Shown piece by piece: positions 1-30,522 of a DNA stretch of 32,940 nucleotides. A model generated the notes under the pieces. That model ran no database searches, was not told the origin of the DNA, and was given only the letters and a program-made list of their open reading frames with translations. Every line of letters starts with the position of its first letter. The stretch's first letter is position 1. Origin of the DNA: Chiloscyllium plagiosum (Eukaryota); assembly GCF_004010195.1 (NCBI RefSeq), contig NW_025213419.1:1-32940 (forward strand). The letters run 5' to 3'. Both the position numbers and the translations under genes were made by a program.

Positions 1-3000
1 GCCTATTCCTATCAGCCTGTCCAACCCGACATAACTCATCCTCTATCCGTGATGATTTTCTGACACCTGAGCAGCTCTCTATGTTAAAAACATTCTCCAG
101 CACTTCCACTCACTCCCTATCGTTGTAACCTCCTCCAGCCATGACAATCCTCCGTCTTCTGGTCAGACTCTCCAGCTTCTAAAGCTCTCCCAGTCGTTAG
201 AACATTCTGTAGCACCAACAAACGTCCCTATCCCTCTAATGTTATCCAGCAACAACTAACCTCACGAGACGTGTAAAATTGTCAAGCACCAAGACCCATT
301 CCCGATCCCTGTCACGTTTTCCAGCACCTACACATCTGCCTATCGTTGTATTGGTCTCTAGAACGTAAACACATTGCCTATCATTCTGCATTTTCCAGCA
401 CCTACACCAATCTCTATCCATGTAACAGTATCGAGCACTTACATCTCTCGATATCCGTTTATCATTCACCAACACCTGCACCGTTGTCTGTCCCTGTAAC
501 ATTCTCCAGCACCTCCAGCCGTTACTATCCCTGTAACCTTCTCCAGCCCCGCCAACTCACCTTATCTGGTAACGTTCGTTGACTCCTAAACTCTCCCCGA
601 TCCCTCATAAATTCTCCAGCACCTGTACCACACGTTTTTCCTGTAAGATCTCCAAACCGTGCAACAACTTCCTATTGCTGTACATTCTCTAGCTCCTTCA
701 CTTGCTCCCTGTCACTGTGACATTGTCCACCATCTACACCCTGTCTATAGCTGTAACATTCACCAGCATCTATACCACACTGTATCCATTTAACATCACT
801 GAACCCGGCACACAGTCCAAATTACTGCGAAATTCTGCCACACCAAAGGTCTCCCTAATCATGCAACATTGTGCAGCACCTAAACCAGACCGTATCCTTG
901 TACTGTTCTCCATCACCTACACTGCTGCTTATCGCAGTAATATTCACCACACAGACACTCACTCCATATTCCTGCAACATTTTCTGGCAGGTACATGCAC
1001 TCCATTTTCCTGTAATATTCTACTGCATCTACCCACACTACCGATCACTGGAACATTCTCCAGCACCTACAGCCACTTCCTATGCCTGTAATTTGTTCCA
1101 ACCCCTACATACCCCATCCTCTATCCATGATCATTTTCTCGCACGTGAAAGGCTCCCTCTCTCTGAAACATTCTCCAGCACCAACACCCTCTCCCAATCC
1201 TTGTAACCTTCCCCAGCCACGACAGCCTTCCTCTATCTGTCACATTCTCCAGCACCTGCACTTCTCCCACTCACTGTGACATTCTGCAGTACCTCCATCC
1301 CGCTCCATTCCTGTAACCTTCTCGAGCACTTAAACCCAACCATTTCCCTGTAACATTCTCCAATACCTGCATCCCTCCCTTTTCATGCAACACTTCCCTC
1401 CCCTCCAGCGACCCACTATCCCTGTTAATTTGTTACGCACCTTCGCCCACTGCCTCTCCCTGTATCATTCTGCTGCAACAACATGCGTCCCACTGCGTCT
1501 AACATTCTACAGCAACGCCACAAATCTCTGTAACTTTGTCCAGGACGTACACACATTCCCTTTCCAAGCACCTCCTACCATTCCCGATCCCTGCTACTTT
1601 TTCCAGGATCAACACATCACCTTATCGCGGTACCATTCTCCAGAACCTACACTTCTCCTATCACTTTTACATTCTCCAACAGCTTCATCTCTCCTTATCC
1701 ATGTAACATTATTCAGTTGCATTCTCCAGCACCTCTATTCCTTGTTATAACAGGAAAATTCGCCAGGCCGGCTACCTCACCTTATTCCGGTCGCGTTCTC
1801 CAACCCGTAATCCACCCTTACCCCTGTAAACAAGGAGCCAAACTGCATCACCCACTATTCCTGTAAGATCACCAAACTGTACAACTACTGATGATTGCTT
1901 TAACACTGTCTAGCACCTTCACCAACCCCCTGCCTGTAACATTCTTCAGCATCGATACGCCCTCTATAACTGCAACTTTCAGCAGCACCTATACCACACC
2001 GTTAACATTTGGCATCTCTAAACCGTACAGTCATTCCATATTCTTCCACAAAACTCTACCACAACTAAATCTCTCTCTATCCTTGTAATATTGCACAGCA
2101 CGTTCACCACTCCATATTCTTGTGGCATTCTCCAGCTGCCGATTGCTGTAACATTCTCCATACCTACACGCACTCCCTTTTCCTAAAATATTCTCAAGAA
2201 CATTCACCCACTCCCTATCACTATAACGTTCTCCAGCAACTGCACACATTACCAATCCCTGGAACATTCTCTCGCACCCAAAGTCGCTGCCGTGTCTGTG
2301 ACGTTCTGCAGCACATGCAGCCACTCCCTATGCCTGCAATCCTGTTCAGCTCCGTCACACCCCACCCCCTATTTGTGAAACTTTCTCCAGCACCTCAACC
2401 GATCCATCTCCCTGTAATATTCTCCAGGTGCTTCACCCACTCACTGTTGCTGTAACATTCCCCAGCGACACCACCGTTTCCTTTCCATGTGACATTCTAC
2501 AGCACCAACAACGTTCCATATCCCTGTAATATTCTCCAGAACAATCTTGGGCGGCACGGTGGCCCAGTGGTTAGCACTGCTGCCTCGCAGCGCCAGAGAC
2601 CCGGGTTCAATCTGTAAGACTCTCCAGCTCCTATACACCTCCATATCAAAAGTAATGTCTCCAGACCTTACACTAACTCCTTTATCCCGCAAAATTGTCC
2701 AACACCTTCTCCCCTCACTATCCCGATAACCCTTTTCACCACCTTCACCCTTCCCTAATCTGCCACTTTATCAAAGAACTACACTTATGCCCCATCCCTG
2801 TGCCCCCTATCCAGCACCGACACCCCTCCCTTTCCCTGTAACATTCTGAACATCCAACACTCTTTCTCTGTTCCGTAACATTCTCTCGCACCGTTACCTC
2901 TTGGTTTCACTGTAACCTTCTCCATCAAATACACGACTCCATATCCCTGTAAAATTTCTATCCTTTACGTTCACTCTCTTTTCATGTAAGGTTGTCCAGC

Positions 3001-4472
3001 ACCATCACGCACTCCCTGTCCCTGTGATAATATCCTGCAAGTCCAGAAACTCCTCATATTGTTGCCCTTGTCCAGCACGTACACCTCACCACTTCTCTGT
3101 CACATTCTGCATCACCTACATCTTTCACGATCCATGTAACATTCTCCCGCACGTACTCCCACCCCATATCCCGGTGACATTCTCCAGCATCAACACTGAT
3201 TCCTGTCCCTCTAACATTCTCCAGCATCTGTGCACCTCACTGACCCTGTCACCTTCACCAGCCACAATACCACTCCCTATCCACTGTCACTTTATCCAAC
3301 TTCTCCAGCCTTCCCGATCCCTGTAAACGTCTCTACCAGTCTCTATAAGAGTAAGATCTCCAAACCATTCATTACTGATGTAAATTGTCCAGCACCTTCA
3401 CCCACTCCCTGTCACTGTAACATGCTCCAACACCGACACCCCACTCGGTTCCTGGACACGTCTACATCACCTCCATCACTCTCGATCCCTGCAGCTTTTT
3501 TCGAGCACCTACATCCCTCCGTATTCCTGTAACTCTCTGAATCACCTACACTACTCCCTATCACAGTAATATTCTACAGCACCTACACCACACTCTGTTA
3601 GTGTAACCTTCACCAGGCCTTCACCCACTGGTTATCCATGTAACGTAATCGAACAATTAATTGCCTCCCTACCCCATTAAATTTCCAACCAGTACAACTA
3701 TTCGCTTATCCTGTAACATTGGCCATCTCGTCTACCCACTCCGTATTCCTGTAACATTTGCCAGCACCTACTCTCATGCCTATCCCAGTAACATTCACCA
3801 GCAACTGCACAATACTCAATTATTGTAACTACTCCAAATCCATGTTCCTGTAACATTCTCCAGCACCTATACCAGTCCCTAACCCTGTAACATTCTACAG
3901 CACCTTCACTTGTCCTTATAGCTTCGATCGTCTCATGTTCCTACACACGTATTTATTTCTGTAAAATTCTCCAGCAACTATTCCATTAATTATTGGTGTA
4001 ACATTCCGCAAAACCTACACGTCCTCCCTATCCTGTGACATTCTCTATCACTTGCAACCATCCCTATCCCCGGAAACTTCTCTAGACTCTAAACCCCTCG
4101 CTTTTCCGGTAACCTTCTCCAGCACGACCATGCAGTCCCTATTCATGTAACATTCTCCATCCATCCCTTATTAGCATTCCCTATCTCTTTAACACTCTCC
4201 AGCTCCGGAACACCTCCGCATCCCTCCAACAGTCACCAGCACCTATACACGATCCGATCCCTGTAACATCTCCAGCCTCTTCGAACAATCCCTATCCCTG
4301 GAAAATGTGTCCAGCACTTTCACGGAAATCTTGTCCCTGTAAAATCTTTCATCACCTACAGCAACTCCCAATCCCTGTCACATTGTTCCAGAAATACACA
4401 CCACGACTTCCCTGTTAAATTATCCGAACCGACATCACTCCCTATCCGTGCAATATTACTCAGTACCTACTT
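1..4472. repeat. Degenerate ~37-bp minisatellite, consensus approx. CCCTGTAACATTCTCCAGCACCTACACCACTCCCTAT
   Basis: CTGTAACATTCTCCAGCACC-like cores recur every ~37-38 nt (e.g. ctgtaac at 3848 and 3885). The + strand is strongly C-rich and G-poor, and units are heavily diverged. Confidence 0.93.
2549..2612 (+). mobile_element. tRNA-derived head of an HE1-like SINE (isolated 5' fragment)
   Basis: gggcggcacggTGGCCCAGTGGttagcactgctgcctcgcagcgccagagacccgGGTTCAATC carries Pol III A and B boxes. It matches the heads of the longer SINEs at 16100, 17355 and 18053. Confidence 0.88.
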
Positions 4473-4473
4473 C

Positions 4474-4686
4474 CGAGCTTGTGAGGACAGGAATAGGAGG
4501 ATAGAGCAGATGAATGCATGGCTGAGAAGCTTGTGTATGCGAGAAGGATTCACATTTTTGGGTCATTGCAATCTCTTTTGGGGTAGAAGTGAACTGTACA
4601 AGAAGGATGGATTACACCTAAATTGGAAGACGTCTAATATACTGGCAGAGAAATTCGCGAGACCTGATCGGGAGGATTCAAACTAG
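4474..4686 (+). pseudogene. CR1 ORF1 C-terminal remnant (SGNH esterase-like domain)
   Basis: Translates to ...RNRRIEQMNAWLRSLCMREGFTFLGHCNLFWGRSELYKKDGLHLNWKTSNILAEKFA.... DGLHLN is the DxxH motif of CR1 ORF1 esterases. Ends at TAG ~4686. Confidence 0.8.
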
Positions 4687-4809
4687 GAAGGATGGGGGTG
4701 GGGGCTGAGGTTGCATCCAGGGAGATTGTGAGGAAAGAGATCAATATGAGACTGTTGAGAACAGAAGGAAATCAAAGAGTCAGGGCAGGCAGTGATAAGT
4801 TCGGAATAA

Positions 4810-7060
4810 TAAATTAAATTGCATTTATGTCAATGCAAGGGACCTAACGGGGAAGGAAGATGAACTCAGGGTATGGTTAAGAACATGGGCCTGGGATATC
4901 ACCGCAATTACACAAACATAGCTCAGGAATGAGCAAGACTTGCAGCTTAATGTTCCACGATTCAAATGCTACAGGAAGGATCGAAGATGATGCAAGTGAG
5001 GAAGCGCAGAGGCGTTTTTGAAAAGAGATCACATTTCAGCTGTGCTGTGGGAGGATATTCCTGGAAATACATTCAAGGGATGGCTGGAAAATGGGAAGCC
5101 GTCAGGAACGAGATAACGAGAATACTGAGAAAGTATATTCCTGTTACGGTGAAAGGAAAGATTGGTAGGTATAAGGAATGCTGCATAACTAAATAAATTG
5201 ATGGTTTGGTTCAGAAAAAAGGAAGTATATGTAAGGTTTAGACAGGATAGATCAAGTGAATCCTTAGAGTTTAAACGCAGTAGGAGTATGCTTAAAAGGG
5301 AAATCAGGAGGGCGAAAAGGGTACATGACTTAGCTTTGGCAAATAGAATTAAGGAGTATTCAAAGGTATTGTACAGATATATTAAGGACAAAAGGATAAC
5401 TAGGGAGAGAATAGAGCCCCTCAAAGATCAGCAAGGCGGCCATTGTGCATAGCCTCATAAAATGGGGGAGATACTAAACGAGTACATTGCTTCAGCATTT
5501 ATGTTGGGAAAGGATAGGGATGATCTACAATGTAGGAAAATAAATAGTGACACCTTGCAAAATGTCCATATTACAGAGGAGGGAGTGCTGGATGTCTTGA
5601 ATCGCAAGACGGTGGATAAATCCGCAGGTCAAGATCAGGTGTACACTAGAACCCTGTGGGAAGGTAGATAAGTCATTGCTGGGCCTCTTGCTGTGATATG
5701 TGTATCATCAATAGTCACAGGTGAGGTGCCGGAAGACGTGAGGTTGGCTAACGTGGTGCCACTGTTTAAGAAGTGTGGTAAGGACAATCCAGAGAACTAT
5801 AGACCAGTGAACCTAACGTCGTTGGTGGGCAAGAATCCTGATGGACAGGATGTACTTGTATTTGGAAAGGCAAGGACTGATTAGGGATAGTCAACATGGC
5901 TTTGAGCGTGAGGAATCATGTCTAACAAACTTGATTAAACATTTTGTAGAAGTAATAAAGAGATTGATGGGGTTAGAGCGGAAGATGTAATCGAGATGGA
6001 CTTCAACAAGGCGATCGAAAATGTTCCTCTGGGAGACTGGTTAGCAAGATTAGATCTCACGGAATACAGGGAGAACTAGCCACTTGGATACATAACTGGG
6101 TCAAAGATAGAAGAGAGAAGGTGGTGGTGGACGCTTGTTTATCAGACTGGAGACATGTGACCAATGGAGTGCCGCAATGATCGGTTATCGATCCTACCGC
6201 TTGTCATTACCATAAATAATTTGGATGCAAGCAGAAGAGGAAATTAGTGAGTTTGCAGGTGACACAAAAATTGGAGGTGTCGTGGACAGCGAAGAAAGTT
6301 ACCTCAGGTTACAACAGGATGTTGACCAGATGGGCCAATGGGTTGAGAAGTGGCAGATGGAATTTAATTCAGGCAAATGCGAGTGCTGCATTTTGTGAAA
6401 GGAAATGTTAGCAGGACTTATACATTTAATAGTAATGTCCGAGGGAATGTTACTGAACAAAACGACCTTTAGCTCCTTGAAGTGGAGTCGCAGGGAGACA
6501 GGATAATGAAGAAGGCGCTTGGTAGGCTTTCTTTTATTGGACAGAGTGCTGATTCCAGGAGTTAGGTGGTCATGTTGCGGCTGTACAGGACATTGGTTAG
6601 GCCGCTGTTGGAATATTGCATACAATTCTGTTCTCCTTAACATCAGAAATATGTTGTAAAACTTGAAAGGGTTCAGAAAAGATTTAGAAGGTTGTTGCCA
6701 GGGTTGGACGATTTCAGCTATAGGGAGGGGTTGAACAGGCGAGGGCTGTTATCCCTGGAGCATCGGAGGTTGAGGGGTGACCTGATAGAGTTTCACAAAA
6801 TCATGAGGGGCATGGATCGGATAAATAGACAAAGTCTTTTCCCTTGTGTGGTGGAGTCCCGAACGAGAGGGCATAGCATTAAGGTGAGCGGGAAAGATAT
6901 AAAAGAGAGGGCAACTTTTTCACACAGAGGGTGGTACGTGGATGGAATGAGCTGCCAGAGGAAGTGGTGGACGCTGGTACGATTGCAACATTTAAAATGC
7001 ACTTGGATGGGTATATGAATAGGAAGGGTTTGGAGGGATATGGGCAGGACTCTGGCAGGT
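4810..7060 (+). pseudogene. CR1 ORF2 remnant (APE endonuclease start plus reverse transcriptase), disrupted
   Basis: ORF-track fragments 5198-5452, 5462-5671, 5693-5884, 6692-7018 and 6931-7197 are all CR1 ORF2-like. The catalytic FADD reads FAGD at ~6253-6264. Most of the endonuclease is missing after ~5070. Confidence 0.9.
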
Positions 7061-7153
7061 GGGACAAGATTGGGTTGGGATATCTGGTCGGAATGGGTGG
7101 AATGGACCGAAGGGTCTATTTCCATGCTGTATATCTCTATGACTCTGTGACTC

Positions 7154-10100
7154 AATCGCTGTCCCTGTCACTGCAGTTCAACACCCTATCCCTATAACAT
7201 TATTCACCGCTAACACCCCTCAAACACTGTAACATTTTCCAGTATCTACACACCTCCCTATTCTGATCACGTTCTCCTGGTCCTCCTCCCCTTCCGATCC
7301 CTGTAAACTTCATCAACACCTGCACCACTCCTTGTTCCTGTAAGAATCCAAACTGTACACCTACTCCTTATTGCTTTAACATTTTCCAGCTCCTTCAACT
7401 ACTCTCCGTCACTGAAATATTCTCCAACACCTACACCCGCCCGATTCCTGTAAACTTCTTTATTAACTGTCCCACTCTATCCCTACACCCTTTTCCAGTA
7501 ACTACACACATTGCTATCTCAGTAACATACTGCAGCATCTACACACCTCCCTGCCTAAATAACATTCTTTGGCACATACACAACTCCCTATTACTGTAAC
7601 ATTCACCAGAATCTAGACATCTTTACTTGCCCTATAAAACTCTCCAGCACCTGCACCGCTCCATATCCCCGTATCATTCCCTCAGGGCCCACCCTTTTCC
7701 ATATCACTGTAACATCTCCACACACATACCCCAGCACCGACAATCACTGCCTCTCCGCGGAACATCCTCGAGAAACTAACACCCTTCCTCCCCCTGTAAA
7801 ATCTCCAACCAGTACGACTACAACCTCATCCTGTAAAAGTGTCTAGCACCTTCATCCACTCGCTATCTTTGTAACATTCTCCGGCATCTGCACCCCTCCA
7901 GATCGCTGTCACATCAATAAGATCCTCACCACTCCCAACTTATGTAACATCTCGGAGCCAGACACTCACTGTTCATGTAACATTCGCCAGGACCGACGCC
8001 CCTCCCCATCATTTACCAATGCCGAGCACCGACAGCCTTCTTTACAACTTTACCATTCTCTGGCACCTATACCACTCCCGATCTCTGTAACATTCTCCAG
8101 TACCTACATCCACTCCCCATCCATGTTAGCTTCTCTGGCCCCTGCAGCCTCACCCTAGCCCTGTAACATTCTACAGCACCTGCACCACTCCTGATCCCTG
8201 CCACATTCACCAGGACACTCATCACTCACAATCTACGGAACATCTCAGAGCCCTACACCCACTCGCTAATCATGAAGCATTCACCAGGGCCTACACCCCT
8301 CCCTATCCGTTTAAGATTGCCCAGCACCTGCAGACCTCCATACCGCTTTACCATTCCCTGGAAATTATATCTCTGCTTATCCCTGTAACATTCTCCAGTA
8401 CCTATAACCAATCCTGAAACCAATCTCCAGCAACTGCAGTCGTCTGTATCCCTGTGGTTTTCTCCAACACCCACTGTCTATTCCGGTATATGCTCCAGGA
8501 CCTACACACACTTCCTATCCTTGTGACTTTCTCCAGCATCTATACCGCTCCCTATCCCTGTAACATTCTCCAGTCGCTTCACCTACTCCCTATCCCGTGA
8601 CATTCTAAAGCGGATACACCCCTCTCCACACCTGCAAAGTTCTCCAGCGCCTAATTCCTTCCTTGCACCTATAACACACTCTGACATCCTCACCCTCAAT
8701 ATCCCTGCAACTGTCTCCAGCACCTGCTTACCTCCCTCTCTCTGTTACATTCCCCAGCACTTGCACCCATTCCCGATTCCTGTAACATTCGCCAGACCCG
8801 ACACACGCGCTATACAAGTAACATTCTGTTGCCCCGATACAAACTGTCTATTCAAGTAACATTCACCAACGCCAACAGAATTCCCCATGCCTGTAACCAT
8901 CTGTACCATCGGCTCTGCTCTCTGTCCCTGTCATATTCTCCATCGCCTACATACACACTCTCTTACCCTGTTACATTCTCCACAACCTACTCTGCTGAGG
9001 ATGCCTGTAATAGTTGACAGTCCTTCCCTCCACCTCTAATATTCTCCAGCTCCTATATGCTTCCCGACACGTATAAACTACTATAATATCTGCACAACTC
9101 TCTATCCTGTAACAGCTTCCACATACCTCCCTTTCCCTAAACATTTCTGCAGCACTTCTGCCCTACCTGTCCCTGAAACATTTTCCAGCATCTGCACCCA
9201 CTCCTGATTCCTGTATCATTCCCCAAAACATACACTCATCACTTTCTCTGTGACATTCTCCCGAACCTCCAACCCTCCCTATCCCTGTAACATTCCCCAG
9301 CACCTAAAGCCTCTGAATCATTATAGTGTTCTCCAGCACCGGCACCCACTCCACCTCCCTGCAAGATTCTATAGTACCGACACTCACACCCTATCCCAGC
9401 AACATTCTCCAGCACTGACACCCACTTCCCATCCCTGTCGTTATTCCCTAGCACCTACACGCCTTCCTATCCATGTAACAGTCTCGATGTGGCTACCAGT
9501 TTTCACAGGCAAAGCCATAGACACTCACACGCTATCCCTGCAACAATCACCAATACTGACAACCACTCCTCATCCCTTTGTTATTTTCCAGCACCTATAC
9601 CCCGTCATATCGCTGCAGCACTGACTCCCAATCCCTGTCGGTATTCCCCAGCCTCTATACCCCTTCATATCCTTGCAACATTCGACAGCACATACACACA
9701 CTCCCTTTCGCTGTAACATTTTCTAGTACCTACACAGACTCAATATCCCTGAAATATTCTCCAGCAGATTAACTCCTCTCTCTCTGAAACATTTTCCCTC
9801 ACCTACACCCAAATGTGATACTCGTAACATTCGCCAGCAACGACAGCACTGCTTACCACTGTATCTTCCTCCAGAAATTTTACACTTCGTTATCTCTAAC
9901 TTTCTCCAGAACCTACAGCTTTTCCTACCCAGATCCGTCCTCCAACTCCTGCACTCATCCCTGTCCCTTAAAATTCTCAAAGATCATTTCCACTCTCTAT
10001 CAGTTTAAACCGTCCTTATTAAACCTGCGCACCCTTTATTGCTGTAACACTGTCCAGCCTAAAAGACATCGTTATCTGGGTAAGATTCTCCAGCACCTAC

Positions 10101-11360
10101 ACCTCTTCGCTTTTCTGTAACATGCTACACCACCTACACTCCTTCATATCCTGTAACATTTTCCAGAAACTACTCTGAAGACCTATCCAGTTAAGAGTCT
10201 CCAGAACCTACATCGTTCCCTAACCTTGATACCTCCTCCAGATACTGCACTCCTCCCTATCCCTGTAACATTTTTTCAGGACCAACCTCGAATCTGTATT
10301 CCTTTAAACACGTCCAGCCCCTGCCCACTCCCTATTTCTTTCACCATGCCCAGTCTCGACAACTCTCCTTATCTGGGAAACAGACTCCTGCTTCCACAAC
10401 CCTCCGTATCCCTGTAAAATATTCCATCACCCATACTCCTGCCGATCACAAAACCCTCTTTCAGCCCTGCACCCCTCCCTATCCTTGTCACATACTCCAG
10501 CAACTAGACCGCGACCTACTGTTGCAATATTTGGCAGTCGTCATACCCTTCCTCCACCTGTAACATTCTCTGGTAAATGGACAACAATTAAACCACCTCC
10601 AACATTCAAATGTTTCCTTTTTAATTGATGACACAATACTAGGTGGGTATGCGGGTTCTAGTTTGAGAAAGATCAAAATTGACGTCATTCTCCAGAACCT
10701 ACAACTTTTCCTACCCTGACATGTCCTCCAACTCCTGCACTCATCACTATCCCTTAAAATTCTCAAAGATCATTTCCACTCTCTATCAGTTTAAACCGTC
10801 CTTATTAAACCTGCCCACCCTTTTTTGCTGTAACACTGTCCAGCCTAAAAGACATCGTTATCTGGGTAAGATTCTCCAGCACCTACACCTCTTCGCTTTT
10901 CTGTAACATGCTACACCACCTACACTCCTTCATATCCCTGTAAAACTTTCCAGAAACTACTCTGAAGACCTATCCCGTTAGGAGTCTCCAGACCCTACGT
11001 CGTTCCCTAACCTTGATACCTCCTCCAGATACTGCACTCCTCCCTATCCCTGTAACATTTTTTCAGGACCAACCTCGAATCTGTATTCCTTTAAACACGT
11101 CCAGCCCCTGGCCACTCCCTATTTCTTTAACCATGCCCAGTCTCGACAACTCTCCTTATCTGGGAAACAGACTCCTGCTTCCACAACCCTCCGTATCCCT
11201 GTAAAATATTCCATCATCCATACTCCTGCCGATCACCAAAACCTCTTTCAGCCCTGCACCCCTCACTATCCTTGTCACATACTCCAGCACCTAGACCGCG
11301 ACCTACTGTTGCAATATTTGGCAGTCGTCATACCCTTCCTCTACCTGTAACATTCTCTGG
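7154..11360. repeat. Continuation of the ~37-bp minisatellite
   Basis: Same CTGTAACATTCTCCAGCACC periodic core and same strand as 1-4472. Confidence 0.92.
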
Positions 11361-11476
11361 TAAATGGACAACAATTAAATCACCTCCAACATTCAAATGT
11401 TTCCTTGTTAGTTGATGACGCAATACTAGGGGGGTATGCGGGTTCTAGTTTGAGAAAGATCAAAATTGACGTCATT
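9902..11476 (+). repeat. Direct tandem duplication, two ~787-bp copies (9902-10689 and 10688-11476)
   Basis: The copies are near-identical. ORF-track pairs 10226-10417 and 11013-11204 differ at only 2 of 63 aa. Both copies start ttctccagaacctaca and end gatcaaaattgacgtcatt. Confidence 0.95.
11365..11445 (+). mobile_element. Short CR1 RT fragment (also duplicated at ~10578-10658)
   Basis: aatgtttccttgttagttgatgacgcaatactagggggg reads NVSLLVDDAILGG and the first copy reads NVSFLIDDTILGG. Both resemble the CR1 motif SKFADDTKLGG. Confidence 0.5.
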
Positions 11477-11549: not shown

Positions 11550-12600
11550 TAGTTTCAATATGTTCGCATACTATACTCGATACCTTATTGATACCATACT
11601 GACACGTACCCAGCATAAGTACGAGATAGTTCGCCTGACTCAACTTCTTCTCAGTTAGGTGGGGACGACTCAACCTGACTTTGAAGGGATCTACTACCAG
11701 TGGTTATAATACTAACACGTCATCCCTTCGGGAAAACGTCCGAATCACAGAGCTTTCATCAGCTAGCAGCTACATCCAACATTGTGGCCACTTTAGGTGC
11801 TCTTTACCTAACTCACCTACACGATTTAAGCTCTCCCTCACCTCCAATACATAATTTAAGTGTAAGATATCCGACTTTCGATTTGTCAATTTTTCTACCA
11901 TTAATTTCAAGGAAAGTCTCACTTCATGCTCGAATATTACCTCAAAGGGAGTGAACTGAGTAGATTCGATTGATGCATCTCTAACGGCAAACAATACGCA
12001 TGGAATATCTTTATTCCAATCATTCAGGTAATCCTGACAGCATCTTCTCAATATGGTATACAAGTTCTGATGTCACCTTTCTTAAGCACCCTGGGATTCA
12101 GAAACATATGCACTGGATTTCACGTGTTGTATACATAAGCTATCCATAACCCCCGTAAAGGTCTCCTCAGTAAAAGTTTACCCTCAGTCCGAATGACTCT
12201 CTCTCAGTAGGCCATACCGTGTGACGAAATCTAAAATTTGTCTACCTCTGCTTTTGCCTCGATACTCAGTTATGGCTTTGCCTGTGAAAACTGATAGCCA
12301 CATCGATTGTGGTTAACAAGTATTTTTTCCACATTTAGTTCTCAGAAGGGGACTTACACAATCACAAGCTGTGTGAAAGGTTCTCCGATTGCAGGAATTG
12401 GCCACAAAGGTGCTGGTTTTGTTACATTCTGTGGCCTAATTACCGTTTGGCATGCATGACGCGTTCAGCAAAAGCTAACCACATCCTTGTGCTTTCTTGG
12501 CCAATAGAAGTGCTTTCGTACCTTAGCCTGAGTCTTTCCTACCCCAATGTGACCTCCAACAGTTAGGTCGTATGCTACCCCTAGCACTTCCTGTCTGTGT
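11550..12600 (-). pseudogene. Gypsy integrase remnant
   Basis: HHCC-type zinc finger at ~12570-12440, catalytic-core C-terminal half in ORF 11770-12063, and a degenerate GPY/F-like region at ~11690-11600. Stops and frameshifts present. Confidence 0.85.
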
Positions 12601-13142
12601 TATACTGGCAACCAACCTCGTACACTTTGGCCCATTTCTCCTCTGCACTAGCCTGTGGTGGTCTCCATTTCCATCTCAGGTTTCAATCTTGCAGATAATA
12701 ACCCTCCAGAATATTCTCTGCCTCATTTTTGGAGTACTCATCCACAGATGTAACTTTTATCGTCTTGTCTTAGTGTTGCAAAACGCTTATCCTTTCAGGA
12801 CTACACACTTGTGTTTGACCCGCTGCCTATTGAAGCTCTTCTAGCATCATGATGTCAAACAGGGTATCCGCTAATTGCCCCTCAACTCCGTCATCTTGTT
12901 CTTTACTTTTTGCTCGTACTTATGATATTGTTCTGGTCACCACGCAATCTGTGCAAATGTTTCTGGTTTAACACATCAGTTTCTTGGTATTCCGTGGGCT
13001 GATCCACAGCAAGGGGTTTTACTGCCACTTTGGATTTTGCCAAATCATTCCCATGGACAAACTTAATTCCTGGAATTGATAGATTAGAGTGGTGCTGGAA
13101 AAGCAAACCAGGTCAGGAAGCTTCCGAGAAGCAGGAAAATCG

Positions 13143-13169
13143 GCGTTTCGGGCAAAATCCCATCATCAG
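13143..13169 (-). ncRNA. Degenerate hammerhead motif (opposite arm)
   Basis: Reverse complement CUGAUGA-U-GGGA-UUUU-GCCC-GAAACGCC. The cleavage triplet GUC is mutated to GCC. Confidence 0.6.
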
Positions 13170-13215
13170 GAACAGAGGCAGGGTGCCTGCAGAGTGGAGA
13201 GATTTACCTGCCTCT

Positions 13216-13251
13216 ATTCCTGATGAAGGGCTTTTGCCCGAAACGTCGGTT
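13216..13251 (+). ncRNA. Minimal type-I hammerhead ribozyme motif with intact core
   Basis: CUGAUGA (13220-13226), extra A, stem II GGGC-UUUU-GCCC, GAAA, CGUC with predicted cleavage after C13247. The palindromic ACGU stem III is typical of Penelope-associated hammerheads. Stem I is weak in this copy. Confidence 0.8.
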
Positions 13252-13451
13252 TTCCTGCTTCTTGGAAGGTGCCTGACCTTTTATCTTCCAGCACCACTCG
13301 AACTTAGACTTTGGTTTCCAGTATCTGTAGTCCTTGATTTTATCTCCTGGAATTGATAGCCTCTCAATTACTGCCACTGTAACTTGCCCAATCTTAATCT
13401 GGCACTGAAACATGGTCTTCTATTGGAAACGATTAATTTATGTTTTTTTTT

Positions 13452-14419
13452 NNNNNNNNNNNNNNNNNNNNNNNNNNNNNNNNNNNNNNNNNNNNNNNNN
13501 NNNNNNNNNNNNNNNNNNNNNNNNNNNNNNNNNNNNNNNNNNNNNNNNNNNNNNNNNNNNNNNNNNNNNNNNNNNNNNNNNNNNNNNNNNNNNNNNNNNN
13601 NNNNNNNNNNNNNNNNNNNNNNNNNNNNNNNNNNNNNNNNNNNNNNNNNNNNNNNNNNNNNNNNNNNNNNNNNNNNNNNNNNNNNNNNNNNNNNNNNNNN
13701 NNNNNNNNNNNNNNNNNNNNNNNNNNNNNNNNNNNNNNNNNNNNNNNNNNNNNNNNNNNNNNNNNNNNNNNNNNNNNNNNNNNNNNNNNNNNNNNNNNNN
13801 NNNNNNNNNNNNNNNNNNNNNNNNNNNNNNNNNNNNNNNNNNNNNNNNNNNNNNNNNNNNNNNNNNNNNNNNNNNNNNNNNNNNNNNNNNNNNNNNNNNN
13901 NNNNNNNNNNNNNNNNNNNNNNNNNNNNNNNNNNNNNNNNNNNNNNNNNNNNNNNNNNNNNNNNNNNNNNNNNNNNNNNNNNNNNNNNNNNNNNNNNNNN
14001 NNNNNNNNNNNNNNNNNNNNNNNNNNNNNNNNNNNNNNNNNNNNNNNNNNNNNNNNNNNNNNNNNNNNNNNNNNNNNNNNNNNNNNNNNNNNNNNNNNNN
14101 NNNNNNNNNNNNNNNNNNNNNNNNNNNNNNNNNNNNNNNNNNNNNNNNNNNNNNNNNNNNNNNNNNNNNNNNNNNNNNNNNNNNNNNNNNNNNNNNNNNN
14201 NNNNNNNNNNNNNNNNNNNNNNNNNNNNNNNNNNNNNNNNNNNNNNNNNNNNNNNNNNNNNNNNNNNNNNNNNNNNNNNNNNNNNNNNNNNNNNNNNNNN
14301 NNNNNNNNNNNNNNNNNNNNNNNNNNNNNNNNNNNNNNNNNNNNNNNNNNNNNNNNNNNNNNNNNNNNNNNNNNNNNNNNNNNNNNNNNNNNNNNNNNNN
14401 NNNNNNNNNNNNNNNNNNN
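13452..14419. other. Assembly gap (N run) inside the Gypsy gag region
   Basis: Run of N. Confidence 1.
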
Positions 14420-15995: not shown

Positions 15996-16099
15996 ATGTC
16001 TGCGTCGTTCAGCCTGATATCTTGAGACTCCTCCAAATCGAATAATATCTTGCCTCTTCAACGAGTTTGATCCTGTACGATATATTATGAACTCTGTAC

Positions 16100-16392
16100 G
16101 GCTGCATGGTGGCTTTTTGGTTAGTACGGCTGCCTCACAGTGCCAGGAAGCTGGGTTCAATTCGAGCCCCGGGAGACGATCTGTGAGGAGTTTGCACATT
16201 TTCCTTGTGTCTGCTTGGGTATCTCCGTCTCTTCAGTTTTGATAAATGGGCCATGCAGATTTGTTCAGCGCGTTTAGGGATGTGCGGATTTGGGAAATGC
16301 AGAGTATTAGGGTGGAGAGATGGGTCTGGCTGGGTGTGGACATCCCTTGGGCCAAATGGCCTGTTTCTAACCTGCTGAGATTCTATGATTCT
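16100..16392 (+). mobile_element. HE1-like tRNA-derived SINE with CR1-type tail
   Basis: A/B-box head (ggtggctttttggttag...gggttcaattc), body gagtttgcacatt, 3' gggccaaatggcctgtttc, and tail attctatgattct. Confidence 0.88.
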
Positions 16393-17089: not shown

Positions 17090-17355
17090 GAATAATAGAA
17101 CACATCCAATGTATGCCCTTTGGCCCAACAAGTGCTCACTAATACTTGGCCTTGACTAATACCCGTAATCTGAACATACTTAAACAATGGGCAACTTAGT
17201 ATGGCCAATTGATCTGCACGTGCTTTTGAATTGTGGGTGGAATCCACCGAGGAGAATGTGCAAACTCTACACAGACAATCGTCTGGAGCTGGAACTGAAA
17301 TTGGGTTCCTGGTAATATGAGACACCAGTGACAACCGCTGAGCTACCATGCCACC
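17090..17355 (-). mobile_element. HE1-like SINE, decayed
   Basis: Reverse-complement head (ccgctgagctaccatgccacc), gagaatgtgcaaactctacacagac body, and ggcccaacaag tail region. Confidence 0.85.
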
Positions 17356-17734
17356 GTAACTCCAGTCACGACAAAATTACTCCACGTATCTGTAGTGTTT
17401 ATAAACATCTACATATCTCCCAGTCTCTCAGACCATCTCCAGCTGCCAGAACCCTCTTTCTGTAAGATTCTCCGAAAGAAGTCCCATACATTTCAGTATA
17501 ACCTCCTCTTATCAACAACCTATAGCACCAATATAATCTTTTCTTCTGTTTTCTTAAAACTCTCTATCTTAATTTCTTTCAAGCAGAAAGCTTCTTCCCC
17601 ATCTCTAACCGCTTCTAAAAACTCAAACCAACTACTGTGGCCTTGTACATATCCGGGAGCATGGTGAACTTAACAAAGTAGAAAGGCTGTAGAAATGAAT
17701 GGGTTTATAGCGGAGTGAATGGTTGGCACAGAGG

Positions 17735-18053
17735 AATTACAATCCCTACATTGTGGAAACAGGCCATTTGTCCCAACAAGTCCGAAGATTATCCAACCCA
17801 GAGCTCTACATTTACCCAGACTAGTGCGTCCAACCGATCTATCCCGGAACACTAAGGACAATTTATCATGTCCAATTCTCCATTATTAGTACATCGTTGG
17901 ATTATCAGACGAAACTGGAGCTCCCGAAGGAAACCTGCACAGATAAAGGAAGAAAGCGTAAAGTCCACATAGGCAGTCGCGCGAGTTTGGATACGCACGT
18001 GTGTCACTGATGCTGTGAGACAGCAGTACTTACCACTGAGCCATCGTGCCACG
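17735..18053 (-). mobile_element. HE1-like SINE
   Basis: aatccctacattgtggaaacaggccatttgtcccaacaagtcc (3' end) through cagcagtacttaccactgagccatcgtgcc (head). Confidence 0.88.
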
Positions 18054-18069
18054 CCAGACACAGTAAAAA

Positions 18070-19050
18070 CTTGATTTGCAGACGTTTTGTCCTCGTCCAG
18101 TGCTCTTCACTGACATCTTAAGTGTTTTGCATCCGCATGTGAATTTCTCCGTTCTGTCTCAGTTGGATTTCACTTGATTCCTTTCTTTTTTGCTTCTGGT
18201 TGGCTGTTCTGGTTGTTCAATGCAGTGCGGGTTTGTTGGTGGAGTCCGTGGATTAGTTCCATGTTTCCAGGAATTATCTCGCTCTCCTTTGTTTAGATTG
18301 TCCTATGAAGGTTATTTTGCCCCAGTCGAATTTGTGGTCCTGTCATCAGTGTGCAAAGTACTGAAGATGTCACTTACCAGGGAGAGACAGTCGTGACGTT
18401 TAGTGGCTAGTTGGTGTTCGTGGATGTGGAGTGCTAGTTGTCTACCTGTTTGCCACGCTATCTTACATTAAAAAATCTCGGAACTGATAGCCAGACTTCT
18501 CCGATCACCTGGATTCATGACAGCCAATAAACTTACAGCCACGCTCAGACAACAACTCATCAGAACAAAATGCCTATTCTCACCATTTGCAAGACAAACT
18601 TCATTTATATTATTCCAAAAAATAGACTGCCTGGAATACTACATAGGACAAACAGGCAGACAGTTATCAATCCACATGCCTTGTGCACCAACTAGTTTCG
18701 ACACGCCATGAACAGCTGACCAAATAAATATACGCACAGATGACTTCGACCTGGACAACACATCACTCATAGCACACGCTAAACAGTGGACTGCCAGAGA
18801 ACTCCTCGGATCAGGGCACTCAGCTACGGATTCCATCAACAAGCACATTGACCTGGACCAACAAAATCAGCCACTACACAAGTAATTGGTACCGGCAAGT
18901 GGAAGCAGCAGAAATGGAGCCAAATAAATTCTAGAATGCACAGCACAGAGGCACTTCAGAAGAGGCTGCAAAGTACTGAAGATGTCATTTAGACAAGGGC
19001 CAAAGCGTCAGGAAATCAACTTGCGAGGTCGGCAACAGACCCACAACCAC
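18070..19050. mobile_element. Penelope-like element remnant with inverted arms (minus ~18070-18455, plus ~18470-19050) and GIY-YIG fragments
   Basis: The plus arm encodes ...ANKLTATLRQQLIRTK...DCLEYYIGQTGRQLSIH.... The minus arm carries the same GIY-YIG region in reverse. Degenerate hammerhead motifs lie at both outer ends (~18076-18122 minus, 18976-19009 plus). Confidence 0.85.
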
Positions 19051-19052
19051 AT

Positions 19053-19142
19053 CATTCGCGATGAAGGGCTTTTGCACCAAACATACATTCTCCTGCACCT
19101 CGAATAATCCCTGACCTGGAGTGCTTCTCCAGCACCACTCTC
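19053..19142 (+). mobile_element. Single arm of the 13083-type hammerhead element, decayed
   Basis: attcgcgatgaagggcttttgcaccaaacatacattctcctgcacctcg...cctgacctggagtgcttctccagcaccactct aligns to 13216-13300. Confidence 0.75.
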
Positions 19143-21732: not shown

Positions 21733-21921
21733 AAATTGAGGACTGCAGATGCTAGAGATCAGAGTATAGACTAGAGTGGTGCTGGAAAAGCGTTGCAATT
21801 CAAGCCATCTCCGAGGAGCAGCAGCCCTTCCTGACAAAGGCCTTTTGCCAGAAACATTGATTTTCCTGCTCCTCGGTGCTGCGATACCTGCTGTGCTTTT
21901 CCAGCAACACTCTAATCTAGT
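21733..21921. mobile_element. ~190-bp fold-back hammerhead-type element (same family as 13083)
   Basis: Arms tagactagagtggtgctggaaaagc and gcttttccagcaacactctaatcta. Degenerate core ttcctgacaaaggccttttgccagaaacatt. 14-bp direct repeat CCCT(T/G)TTACAGGTG at 21719-21732 and 21922-21935. Confidence 0.85.
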
Positions 21922-22864
21922 CCCTGTTACAGGTGCCAACTTTTAAAAAGTCATTACACTTTTGTATTCTTAATCCGAAATGGCCCTAGGCACGGCAGGT
22001 GGGGTAAAACCTGAGCCCAACTTTGTAAACAAGTCTCCGATGTTCTGGTGAATGGCGTGGTGCAGGAGATGTACATTATCTTGCTCCGAACTTGACAGGT
22101 GAGACCACGGCACCAGACCTTGTCAGCTTGCTATGACGTTTACCACTGGTTCAGTGAGGTGCCAGCCTTCTCGGTAAATGCTCAGCTGTGACTGCCTCAA
22201 CTCTACCAGGTTAAATGACACCATCTGCACTTTGTGTCCTCGCACTCACTGTTAGTGCATCCATCTCCCCACCAAGGCTCATGTTTTCCCTCTCCCACTA
22301 TGAATGCAGCACTTTCTCTCATTCTCTCTCTAACCTCTCTTCTACCCGTCTCCACAACTTATCATCGTGCCTGTGCTGCCGACTCAACCATTCAGGACAC
22401 CTCGCCACCTTTCCATCAGCTCCACCCGCACCAAAAGCTGTGCTACCCACTGCCATCGCCTGTGTTACCTCTTGTTACTCCTGTCATTCCAGAAGCCTTA
22501 ATCCACAATAGGGCAGAAAGAACCAAGAGAGATATAGGTCGTCCCAACATTTCGCCCTTCACCCCTAACAGGGGAAGGAACCTAACCATAACAATCACAA
22601 GAGGCTGGCTGACCTGTCCAAGCTCTCGGGCTGTTATCTGAAACTCCCATTGACTCCCTGTGCTGGACAACTTTACTGCTTTTGGGGCAAATATATCAAA
22701 CTTCCTGGTTTTGTGGCTATGCTAAGCAACAAGCAAGTACAGCAGCGTGTGAACCTGGAAGCTCTGGTTAGGGGGCAAAACGACTAAAGGCAATGTTTGT
22801 GAGAAGATTTGTCGCTCGCGTGCTCGTTGTTGTGGTTCTGTTTGCCGAGCTGGGAATTTGTGTT

Positions 22865-22904
22865 GCAGACGTTTCGTTCCCTATCTAGGTGACATCCTCA
22901 GAGC
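22865..22904 (-). ncRNA. Hammerhead ribozyme motif, second family, intact core
   Basis: Reverse complement CUGAGGA-U-GUCACCU-AGAU-AGGGAAC-GAAACGUC-UGC. Stem II has two mismatches and stem I has one. Confidence 0.7.
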
Positions 22905-23738
22905 TTGGGAGCCTCCTGTGAAGCGTTTCCTCCGGCGTTTATATTAGTTTGTCTTGAATTGTTGTCTGAGACTGGCTGTTGGTTTTTGTGCTGTTATGAG
23001 TCCTAGTGGTCGTAGTAGTCTGAAATATTCTTGATGTATAGTAACTTGGCTAGTCCTCTGGGTTGTGGCATGTCCTCATTCCGTTGTCTTTCCCTTAGGC
23101 ATCAGTTGATGAAATTGAGGGGGTATCCGTTTTTGGCGAATACATTGTAGAGGTGTTCTTCTTCCTCTTTTTGCAGTTCTGGTGTGCTGCAGTGTGTTGT
23201 GGCCATTTTGAAAATTGTCTTGATGCAACTTCTTTTGTGTGTGTTGGGTGGTTGCTGAATTACGAAAGCAAACAAACCAACATGCCACATTCAGACAACA
23301 ATTCACCAGGACAAAGGACCCGATACCCACCATAAGCAAAACCAAAGTCGTGTACAAAATCTCATGCAAGGACTGCACAAAAAACTACATAGGACAAACA
23401 GGAAGACAGCTAACGATCGGTATCCATGAACACCAACTAGCCACGAAACGACACGACCAGCTACTAAGGATCCTTAGTAGTGGCACACGCAGATGACAAG
23501 CAACATGAGTTCGACTGGGACAACCCTACTATTATAGGACAGGCCAAACAGAGAACAGCCAGGGAATTTCCATAGGTATGGCACTCATCCACAGATTCTA
23601 TCTACAAACACATCGACCTGGACTCAATATACCGGCCACTGCAGTGCACAGCTGGAATTGACGACCGGAAGCGGCAGAGACAAATCATTATAAATGTCGG
23701 TAGAAGCATCACAGAAGCACTTCACAGGAGGCTACCAA

Positions 23739-23777
23739 GCACGAGGATGTCACGTTTACAGGTGACGAAACGTCTGC
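23739..23777 (+). ncRNA. Hammerhead ribozyme motif, second family, core U deleted
   Basis: GCA-C(-)GAGGA-U-GUCAC-GUUUACAG-GUGAC-GAAACGUC-UGC has a perfect 5-bp stem II and a GCA/UGC stem I. Confidence 0.65.
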
Positions 23778-24359
23778 AACACAAATTCCCAGCTCAGCGA
23801 ACAGAACCACAACAACGACAAATGGCAGGGTAATGTAGGATAATGATTTTGTGAGCCTTCATTTCAGGTCAAGGTGTCGGTGCACAAATATCCAGTGAGC
23901 AGCCAAGAGGTGCAGTCGATGAGTTGAGTGTGTGTCCCTGAAAACAGTGTCGTTACAGCAGCGTTGCAGTAAGAGTTGTCAGTGCACTCAGAGATTCAGC
24001 ATTGATGCGGAGAACTGGACTGTCAGTAGGTCGGAGATGTGCTGCGATGGTATGGTGAGGCTGGCATATAACAGATGCCAGCATTGATGGGTGTGGAATG
24101 CATGCATCTTCTGTCTGTGCAGTGTACCTCGAGACGTTGAAGTTCAAGATAGAAGTCTGCAAGAGGGAGGGCTGAGGAGGAGTTATCAGTTACCAACTCT
24201 GACTTCCATCTCAAATACTCCAGATTGTGTTTCCCCCTGTTGGAGCAAGGACACGAAGCTGCAAATTGTTGACAAGAGATCGACATTAATTTGTCTGTTG
24301 GTCATCAGTAATCAGTGAATGAGCATCTCGCCACTCCCGTTCTAAAGGTTTGACTCTTC

Positions 24360-25467: not shown

Positions 25468-25675
25468 AGTAAAAGTGAGGACTGCAGATGCTGGAAACCA
25501 GAGTTTAGGTCAGAGGGGTGTTGAAAAGCACAGAAGGTCAGGCTGCAGGCGCGAAATCGACGAAATCGCATGAACATTCCTGATGAATGGCTTTTGCCCG
25601 GAACGTCGATTTTCCTGCTCCTCAGATGCTGCCTGACCTGCTGTGCTTTTCCAGGACTGGTCTGATCTAAACATA
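25468..25675. mobile_element. ~210-bp fold-back hammerhead-type element (same family as 13083) nested in the LINE
   Basis: Arms gaaaagcacagaaggtcaggc and gcctgacctgctgtgcttttc. Core CTGATGA-A-TGGC-TTTT-GCCC-GGAACGTC (25580-25607). Imperfect direct repeat CCAG(T/C)CCAA at 25459-25467 and 25676-25684. Confidence 0.82.
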
Positions 25676-26571: not shown

Positions 26572-26657
26572 TTAAAAATCACACAACACCAGGTTAAGGT
26601 TGATCAGGTTTAATTGGAAGCACACGAGCTTTCGGAGCGACGGTCCTTCATCTGGCA
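26572..26657 (-). mobile_element. Short Penelope pseudo-LTR-like fragment with a third-family hammerhead motif
   Basis: Reverse complement CAGAUGA-A-GGA-CCGUCGC-UCC-GAAAGCUC-GUG has a palindromic AGCU stem III and one core substitution (CUGA to CAGA). It interrupts the surrounding LINE. Confidence 0.65.
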
Positions 26658-30274: not shown

Positions 30275-30289
30275 CACACAGTCCGGTGT

Positions 30290-30522
30290 GCTGAGGTCAT
30301 GTTGCAGTTGTATAAGACTCTGGTGCGGCCGCATCTGGAGTATTGTGTGCGGTTTTGGTCGCCATACTATAGGAAGCATGTGGAGGCACTGGAACGGGTG
30401 CAGAGGAGGTTTACCAGGATGTTGCCTGGTATGGTAGAAAGATCGTATGAGGAAAGGCTGAGGCACTTGGGGCTGTTTTCATTGGAGAAAACAAGGTTTG
30501 GGGGTGACTTGATAGAGGTGTA
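30290..30522 (+). mobile_element. Young CR1 ORF2 C-terminal fragment running into a gap
   Basis: Open frame EVMLQLYKTLVRPHLEYCVRFWSPYYRKHVEALERVQRRFTRMLPGMVERSYEERLRHLGLFSLEK is a canonical CR1 post-RT motif. Confidence 0.93.

Follow-up and report, generated by a model that had tools for sequence, protein, structure and literature searches.

A palindromic hammerhead-bearing insert in Chiloscyllium plagiosum as a probable product of a Penelope-like element

The window analysed here (32,940 nucleotides of Chiloscyllium plagiosum, positions 1 to 32,940 of contig NW_025213419.1) contains a 262-bp palindromic insert which, by its sequence, is composed of a single hammerhead-bearing repeat end in two copies, each 5'-truncated, placed head to head (5' to 5'). 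We consider it highly probable that the insert goes back to one insertion event, carried out by the reverse transcriptase/GIY-YIG protein of a Penelope-like element (PLE), and that two copies were joined in the process; it has likely been inert since. The assignment to PLEs is based on architecture and motif. It belongs to a kind of sequence that has already been described and is retro-inserted, and it is likely to be the dead-on-arrival product of a very abundant PLE and not a new ribozyme element.

Target site and layout of the insert

An identical 15-bp target site duplication (TSD) is present on both sides of the insert (Table 1), and a match to the left flank of this quality did not occur once among 400 stretches drawn at random from the window. 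Between the duplications lie inverted arms (13084-13182 against 13207-13302) which pair in two blocks, 13110-13182/13207-13279 (73 nt, 89%) and 13084-13107/13279-13302 (24 nt, 83%), and the insert as a whole folds with a predicted energy of −158.5 kcal/mol (z = −16.7), a value equalled by none of 200 shuffled sequences. Sequence and fold thus bear out the preliminary description on this point, in that it had reported a 262-bp insert with inverted arms and an exact 15-bp TSD. The host sequence contains an integrase zinc-binding domain (Integrase_H2C2, 12444-12608, E = 1e-10), and when the two flanks were translated separately one shared minus-strand frame was found on either side of the TSD, with many stops along the remnant. 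The shared frame, the integrase domain and the stops together identify the host as a decayed Gypsy-type remnant, and the earlier claim that the insertion split a Gypsy reading frame is confirmed by the frame common to both flanks. The empty site is deduced solely from the TSD and the continuous host frame; none of the 15 joints listed (of 220) in the DNA runs skips the insert, and a search for relatives of the host flank protein that lack the interruption gave none among three candidates. The claim that the insert has no ORF needs to be qualified, since a stop-free frame of 117 codons (13003-13356, plus strand) crosses it, but stands in so far as the translation has no Met and no real homologues: protein searches with this frame gave no homologue among 49 candidates, and the four matches among representatives were repetitive unrelated proteins.

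The apparent loop of the hairpin (13183-13203, read on the minus strand) equals the upstream continuation of the family, in register, at 18 of 21 letters, a comparison made by eye against the sequence upstream of 13207 in contigs from two DNA runs (X1 and X13). Because of this match the loop can be assigned to the left, tail-less copy and is not a spacer. The arms are not terminal, as there is a surplus of 38–42 nt on the right side only, and the termini of the insert are not inverted repeats of each other. A 38-nt tail confined to the right and unlike termini make the palindrome asymmetric, and a symmetric, MITE-like unit is not borne out; the apparent loop, too, belongs to the left copy. Two letters (13129/13260 and 13122/13267) are common to both arms at positions where most sequence aligned on the right arm differs, which fits a single source variant.

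Table 1. Features of the insert, its host and the other copies of the family, in positions of the window
Feature	Positions	Strand	Remarks
Decayed Gypsy-type remnant (host)	12444..13451	-	Reaches an N gap at 13452
Left TSD	13068..13082		15 bp; last 3 nt also compatible with the terminus of the tail-less copy, a possible microhomology
Tail-less 5'-truncated inverted copy of repeat end	13083..13203	-	121 nt
Degenerate minimal hammerhead	13138..13173	-	Core start 13169; U16.1 to C (13143); 3-bp helix II
Head-to-head junction	13204..13206		3 nt; fits neither copy, including in comparison with loose contig ends
Tail-bearing 5'-truncated copy of repeat end	13207..13344	+	138 nt
Minimal type I hammerhead motif	13216..13251	+	Full core; predicted cut after 13247
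One-sided 3' extension, PLE-type tail	13307..13344	+	38 nt
Right TSD	13345..13359		15 bp
Fourth copy, single-arm, worn	19054..19141	+	TSD unconvincing (79 of 400 random stretches equal)
Second palindromic copy	21733..21921		~34-nt tail on minus-strand arm
Third palindromic copy	25468..25670		~38-nt tail on minus-strand arm

Hammerhead motifs and predicted folding

Cores of hammerhead type start at +13220 and −13169, 51 nt apart. The plus motif has its core at 13220-13226, an extra A (13227), a helix II of 4 bp (13228-13239) and GAAA (13240-13243), with a palindromic ACGU replacing helix III and GUC before the predicted cut; the cut site proposed earlier, after C13247, agrees with this predicted core geometry. 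Helix I, which has 4–5 bp in PLE minimal hammerheads, is weak here (CG, UG, a UU mismatch and AU, so that three of four positions pair, one of them as G-U), and the G-U position (13249) is A-U in most relatives in the sequencing runs. The core features of the plus motif agree with those of the metazoan PLE minimal hammerheads (min-HHRs; Cervera and de la Pena 2014, PMC4209133): C3-A9, G12-A15.1 and U16.1-H17 are present, as are an extra nucleotide after A9, a G10.1-C11.1 pair and a palindromic 15.2-16.2, and helix III is missing. It differs from the Schistosoma min-HHRs in that helix II has 4 bp against their 7–8 bp, and from PLE min-HHRs in the internal U-U of helix I and in the closeness of the two cores (PMC4209133). 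Pairs of minimal hammerheads on opposite strands, 100–700 bp apart, were noted in the same 2014 study, whose available text makes no mention of sharks (PMC4209133).

The minus motif has GCC where GUC is expected, which places C at position 16.1, and from this sequence is likely to be inactive. The canonical letter at 13143 is found in most aligned sequence (122767 of 155937 in depth in DNA run X1; in RNA run X21, 82/86 and 44/69 reads), indicating that the defect arose by decay of this copy. Of the hammerhead reported on each strand, then, two motifs are indeed found and the plus motif alone is intact. Rfam, which the preliminary description had named as a check on the hammerheads, gave no hammerhead match in the window at E ≤ 1, and at E ≤ 10 the locus gave two sub-threshold matches to miRNA hairpins and no hammerhead family. 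Copies of this kind risk mis-annotation as MITEs or miRNA hairpins.

According to the available text of the 2014 study PLE min-HHRs show no cleavage as monomers and weak cleavage as dimers (PMC4209133). When the plus monomer was folded the optimum (−14.1 kcal/mol) had a mispaired core, against −4.8 kcal/mol for the forced hammerhead, and in the optimum of the dimer (−29.8 kcal/mol) the core was still mispaired, against −18.9 kcal/mol for a forced form without helix I. On these predictions no more than weak cleavage would be expected of the plus motif, and that as a dimer or with the help of protein. In folding of the whole insert 26 of 28 core-region positions were paired at a probability above 0.9, and a read-through RNA is predicted to keep the plus ribozyme trapped within the hairpin; the earlier suggestion that such an RNA would bury the ribozyme is thereby supported at the level of modelling. 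In RNA run X21, a poly(A) single-cell library of which 2 in 100 were covered, 1087 reads were found in both directions, almost all of them from other copies and not assignable to the insert locus; five were at least 99% alike, 99% continue into other sequence, and starts or ends did not pile up anywhere among the 1087. Given the type of library this is a weak test of cleavage or of small RNAs. No sign of editing was seen, as the counts of letter changes are similar in the DNA and RNA runs. For PAc, the Poseidon element of Anolis carolinensis, there are likewise no RNA ends at the hammerhead cut site in the part of the report available (Frangieh et al. 2024, PMC11167929).

Sister copies and the making of the palindrome

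Four copies of the family lie in the window (one per 7.6 kb of non-N sequence) and three of them are palindromic (Table 1). Flank repeats over 14–15 bp are present at all three: the TSD of the second copy agrees at 13 of 14 positions (21719-21732/21922-21935; none of 400 random matches is as good) and that of the third, which is worn, at 11 of 14 (equalled by nine of 400 random stretches). In both of these copies the hammerhead is found on the tail-less arm only, and in the same two of the three the tail arm ends before reaching the hammerhead. All three palindromic copies have a tail-less arm that ends within ~2 nt of one point, a tail of 34–38 nt and a tail-less arm that extends further 5' than the tail arm, and all three have different centres. 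Related contigs numbered 33013 in X1, 18544 in X4 and 27825 in X13, three DNA runs from two organisms, with depth, which is not a copy number, concentrated on the insert. The 15 joints listed (of 220) exit the short arm between 13101 and 13172 and enter the long arm between 13210 and 13220. Among the 12 rows listed (of 370) there are seven joints with one to three known intervening letters, which exit the short arm at 13100, 13102, 13115, 13118, 13149, 13157 and 13172; it should be noted that many joints have unknown intervening letters and may reflect poor alignment to a worn copy. The fixed 3' ends, the differing centres and the varied joints make it likely that the palindrome arises anew with every insertion instead of being copied whole.

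This bears directly on the main proposal of the preliminary description, a distinct palindromic element, little described so far and moving as one unit. The proposal is not supported by the centres, which differ in three of three copies, nor by the joints, which vary in three DNA runs; moreover the architecture is the published one of PLEs and one of the two motifs is intact. The strongest form of it, in which a stable non-autonomous palindrome is transcribed and retro-inserted whole with its back-to-back ribozymes under selection, would account for a clean unit bounded by TSDs, a strong hairpin, very many relatives and some joints that recur across several contigs and runs, and it could draw on the finding that cis-acting sequence of the pseudo-LTR (pLTR) can suffice for mobilisation in trans (PMC3846280). 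We nevertheless think it very unlikely, because the three copies of the window have three centres and two of them lack a hammerhead on the tail arm, the joints vary between sequences in the runs, the minus motif is defective, folding predicts a plus core fully paired within the hairpin and no pile of RNA starts or ends is seen in the 1087 reads. A DNA MITE moved by a transposase, which would also be short, non-coding, palindromic and of high copy, has next to nothing to recommend it beyond that likeness and is the least probable reading of all: it is contradicted by termini that are not inverted repeats, the inverted arm stops 38–42 nt short of one end, the TSDs are of 14–15 bp, and the centres vary while the 3' ends are fixed. 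The fixed short TSDs and transposase-type terminal inverted repeats which had been named as the mark of a MITE are thus not what is found here. The preference of the preliminary description for a retro-inserted hammerhead repeat of PLE type is, on the other hand, supported by the tail, the TSDs and the variable centres.

PLE insertions are known to have an inverted 5'-truncated copy beside the main copy and a tail of 30–40 bp at one end (PMC8557442; PMC8969392). In one case from rotifers an inverted pLTR comes with a tail of 31 bp and a TSD of 9 bp, the TSDs of rotifer PLEs being 8–10 bp long and head-to-head the most frequent arrangement (PMC3846280). In the window the head-to-head inverted 5'-truncated copy is present in three of the four copies of the family, the tail at one end measures 38, ~34 and ~38 nt in the palindromic copies, the TSD varies in length and preservation (15/15, 13/14 and, weakly, 11/14, with none for the single-arm copy), and the hammerhead typical of pseudo-LTRs is present as a motif. 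The insert is thus like the EN+ PLEs (Penelope/Poseidon, Neptune, Nematis) in its inverted truncated copy, one-end tail, TSD and hammerhead (PMC8557442; PMC3846280; PMC8969392), but differs from them in that its copies amount to only 121 and 138 nt with no coding sequence left, and from the rotifer PLEs in its TSD of 15 bp (14–15 bp in the family) against 8–10 bp (PMC3846280). A longer upstream continuation of the repeat is found in loose contig ends, with 30 letters visible. No reverse transcriptase or GIY-YIG gene linked to the family was found by the protein searches with the insert frame. Shark repeats of this type, we assume, sit downstream of Neptune-type coding remnants.

In the reading that we prefer the endonuclease would cut both target strands ~15 nt apart and each 3' end would prime reverse transcription on the element RNA, the tail arm being copied from a distal start site and the tail-less arm from an internal one, as by PAc in vitro. 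With PAc in vitro, cutting and extension take place on both target strands, two reverse transcription start sites bracket the tail, giving likewise two 3' ends a tail length apart, and in the available text ribozyme cleavage is not needed (PMC11167929). Two such start sites account for the tail. Both cDNAs would then stop early and be joined at the centre, either through fold-back of the longer, tail-less cDNA, whose newly made sense strand could anneal to the tail-primed one, or through end-joining. In this reading the hammerhead would be an ordinary passenger of the pseudo-LTR, and its double occurrence would follow from the double copying of the pseudo-LTR. The likeness to PAc, an autonomous element studied in vitro, is one of description, and ATT fits one of the two inferred nicks (PMC11167929). 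At the insert the putative bottom-strand nick (13060-13075) is followed directly by ATT, the preference of the anole PLE endonuclease, and the top-strand nick is not. A simple fold-back of the tail-primed cDNA was also considered and is ruled out, since the tail-less arm reaches further 5' in three of three copies.

With regard to the joining step alone, there is an alternative which overlaps the explanation just given: the origin would be a PLE, and the inversion would come from self-priming on an antisense template, as for rotifer Penelope. The model was devised for the head-to-head arrangement (PMC3846280), and the private letters common to both arms fit the copying of one arm from the other. 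However, the junction has three unmatched letters and neither palindrome nor microhomology, and the model alone does not give two fixed 3' ends, which the two start sites of PAc do; we therefore regard self-priming as the lesser possibility, at perhaps one chance in several. A hammerhead repeat of retrozyme or SINE type, moved by another retroelement (e.g. the CR1-type LINE of the window) and inverted by chance, is much less credible than that. In its favour, no coding parent emerged from the protein searches with the insert frame, and TSDs of 15 bp are within the range of LINEs. In addition, non-LTR retrozyme monomers have been found in one chondrichthyan (bioRxiv 10.64898/2026.07.22.740005), and the animal non-LTR retrozymes are likewise non-coding, carry a type I hammerhead and are likely PLE-derived (PMC7229834; bioRxiv 10.64898/2026.07.22.740005). 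Retrozymes, in the sources available, are nevertheless made of direct tandem repeats with ribozymes on the same strand and form circles, whereas the insert is inverted with one intact motif and has at its locus no direct tandem units with same-strand hammerheads and no poly(A) or simple-repeat 3' end. Its hammerhead is minimal and not canonical, and the combination of overlapping inverted duplicates and a tail on one side is the signature of PLEs (PMC8557442).

Beyond the joining of the arms, there is a regularity in where the longer one starts. In the three other copies of the window, and in 14 of the 15 joints listed (of 220), a count which an indel variant near 13215 may inflate in the read data, the longer arm starts at the equivalents of 13216-13220, that is at the 5' edge of helix I and not at the ribozyme cut site. 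In the insert studied, which is the exception, the arms start upstream of the core by 13 and 34 nt. A short master RNA could begin at the usual point; alternatively the reverse transcriptase could pause there, or fold-back microhomology beside helix II could be responsible. That a non-coding master RNA of ~130 nt, running from the 5' edge of the hammerhead to the tail, mobilised by a PLE protein in trans and mirrored at each insertion, largely drives the family is a speculative extension to which we would not give more than a modest chance. If it were true, NSRE1, a main repeat of the nurse shark, would be related to the family, and with so many junctions available genome data by themselves would suffice to test the second-strand step of PLE insertion. 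The greater length of the tail-less arm, together with its frequent start at the 5' edge of the hammerhead, has a bearing on the way in which the inverted ends of PLEs are built, a question which the 2021 and 2024 papers, in the parts available, leave open.

Relation to NSRE1 and other repeats of the window

Both probe primers of NSRE1 (nurse shark, 2006, PMC1513397) find their best match in the window in this family, with the published overlap of 8 nt. On the right arm the two primers agree at 18/24 and 16/24 letters, on the left arm at 16/24 and 17/24, and in the third copy at 16/24 and 19/24; the comparison covers the 40-nt probe region only, which is 66–79% alike, and 16/24 is reached by chance elsewhere in the window for each primer. 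NSRE1 is ~100 nt long with 17 copies per 170 kb, compared with 4 per 30.6 kb here, and it was left unclassified, the available text of the paper mentioning neither a hammerhead nor a palindrome (PMC1513397). As its primers are best matched here and at the published spacing, the family is likely to be a relative of NSRE1 as far as these short sequences go, which offers a likely identity for an old unclassified shark repeat. No description of the family as a hammerhead PLE was found in the literature, a search outside which lay Repbase/Dfam, closed journals and supplements; those of PMC4209133 and of the 2026 preprint may list shark motifs. Expansion of PLEs in whale-shark introns has been reported (10.1101/443036). 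The insert itself is one of very many stumps of PLE type and matters little. Scans with patterns of the family gave no loci in metagenome contigs and none in viral contigs. Separately, 48 metagenome loci with a 19-nt motif were considered as relatives and rejected; they are taken as chance because none matches beyond ~36 nt around the motif.

A second Penelope family, not related to that of the insert, has the same inverted layout at 22793-23816: its minus-strand arm bears a ~31-nt tail, both arms have hammerhead-like cores, and the TSD is weak (9/11; 20 of 400 random stretches equal). It contains a piece like the reverse transcriptase C-terminus (minus strand) and a GIY-YIG-like piece (plus strand), and its relatives carry reverse transcriptase domains. 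The Penelope coding fragment is 80–85% identical to Hemiscyllium and Chiloscyllium proteins in six of eight matches, and a six-frame Pfam search of the two Penelope fragments gave no GIY-YIG match. The identity of these control fragments is founded on protein matches with PF00078/PF26215 together with a sequence motif. At 18200-19050 lies an older remnant of the same second family, 67% alike to 23255-23816; its hammerhead, at 18976, is worn, and the single-arm copy at 19054-19141 begins right after its 3' end.

The remaining sequence is also repetitive. Positions 1-4450 and 7150-11400 form a long, C-rich and strongly strand-skewed array of degenerate ~37–38-nt units, 65–80% alike to one another, which gave no Pfam matches and is likely to be an old satellite; inside it is a recent tandem duplication of ~787 bp (9902-10689/10688-11476, 96% identical), and a 36-nt piece of the Gypsy-type integrase (12271-12306) recurs inverted within it at 9484-9519 (97% identical). 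Decayed LINE remnants, 67% alike over 224 nt, lie at 4450-7150, which has no Pfam match, and at 30280-30522, and are presumably CR1-like, to judge by motifs in the translations. Short dispersed repeats at 16097-16380 and 17110-17360, and also at 17740-18050, occur in opposite orientations (71% over 112 nt) and, we assume, resemble the tRNA-derived SINEs of sharks. Finally, the segment 26570-26660 ends in a hammerhead-like stretch on the minus strand (~26620-26655; GAAAGCUCG after a CUGAUGA-like start, by eye) and is probably a third family of PLE type.
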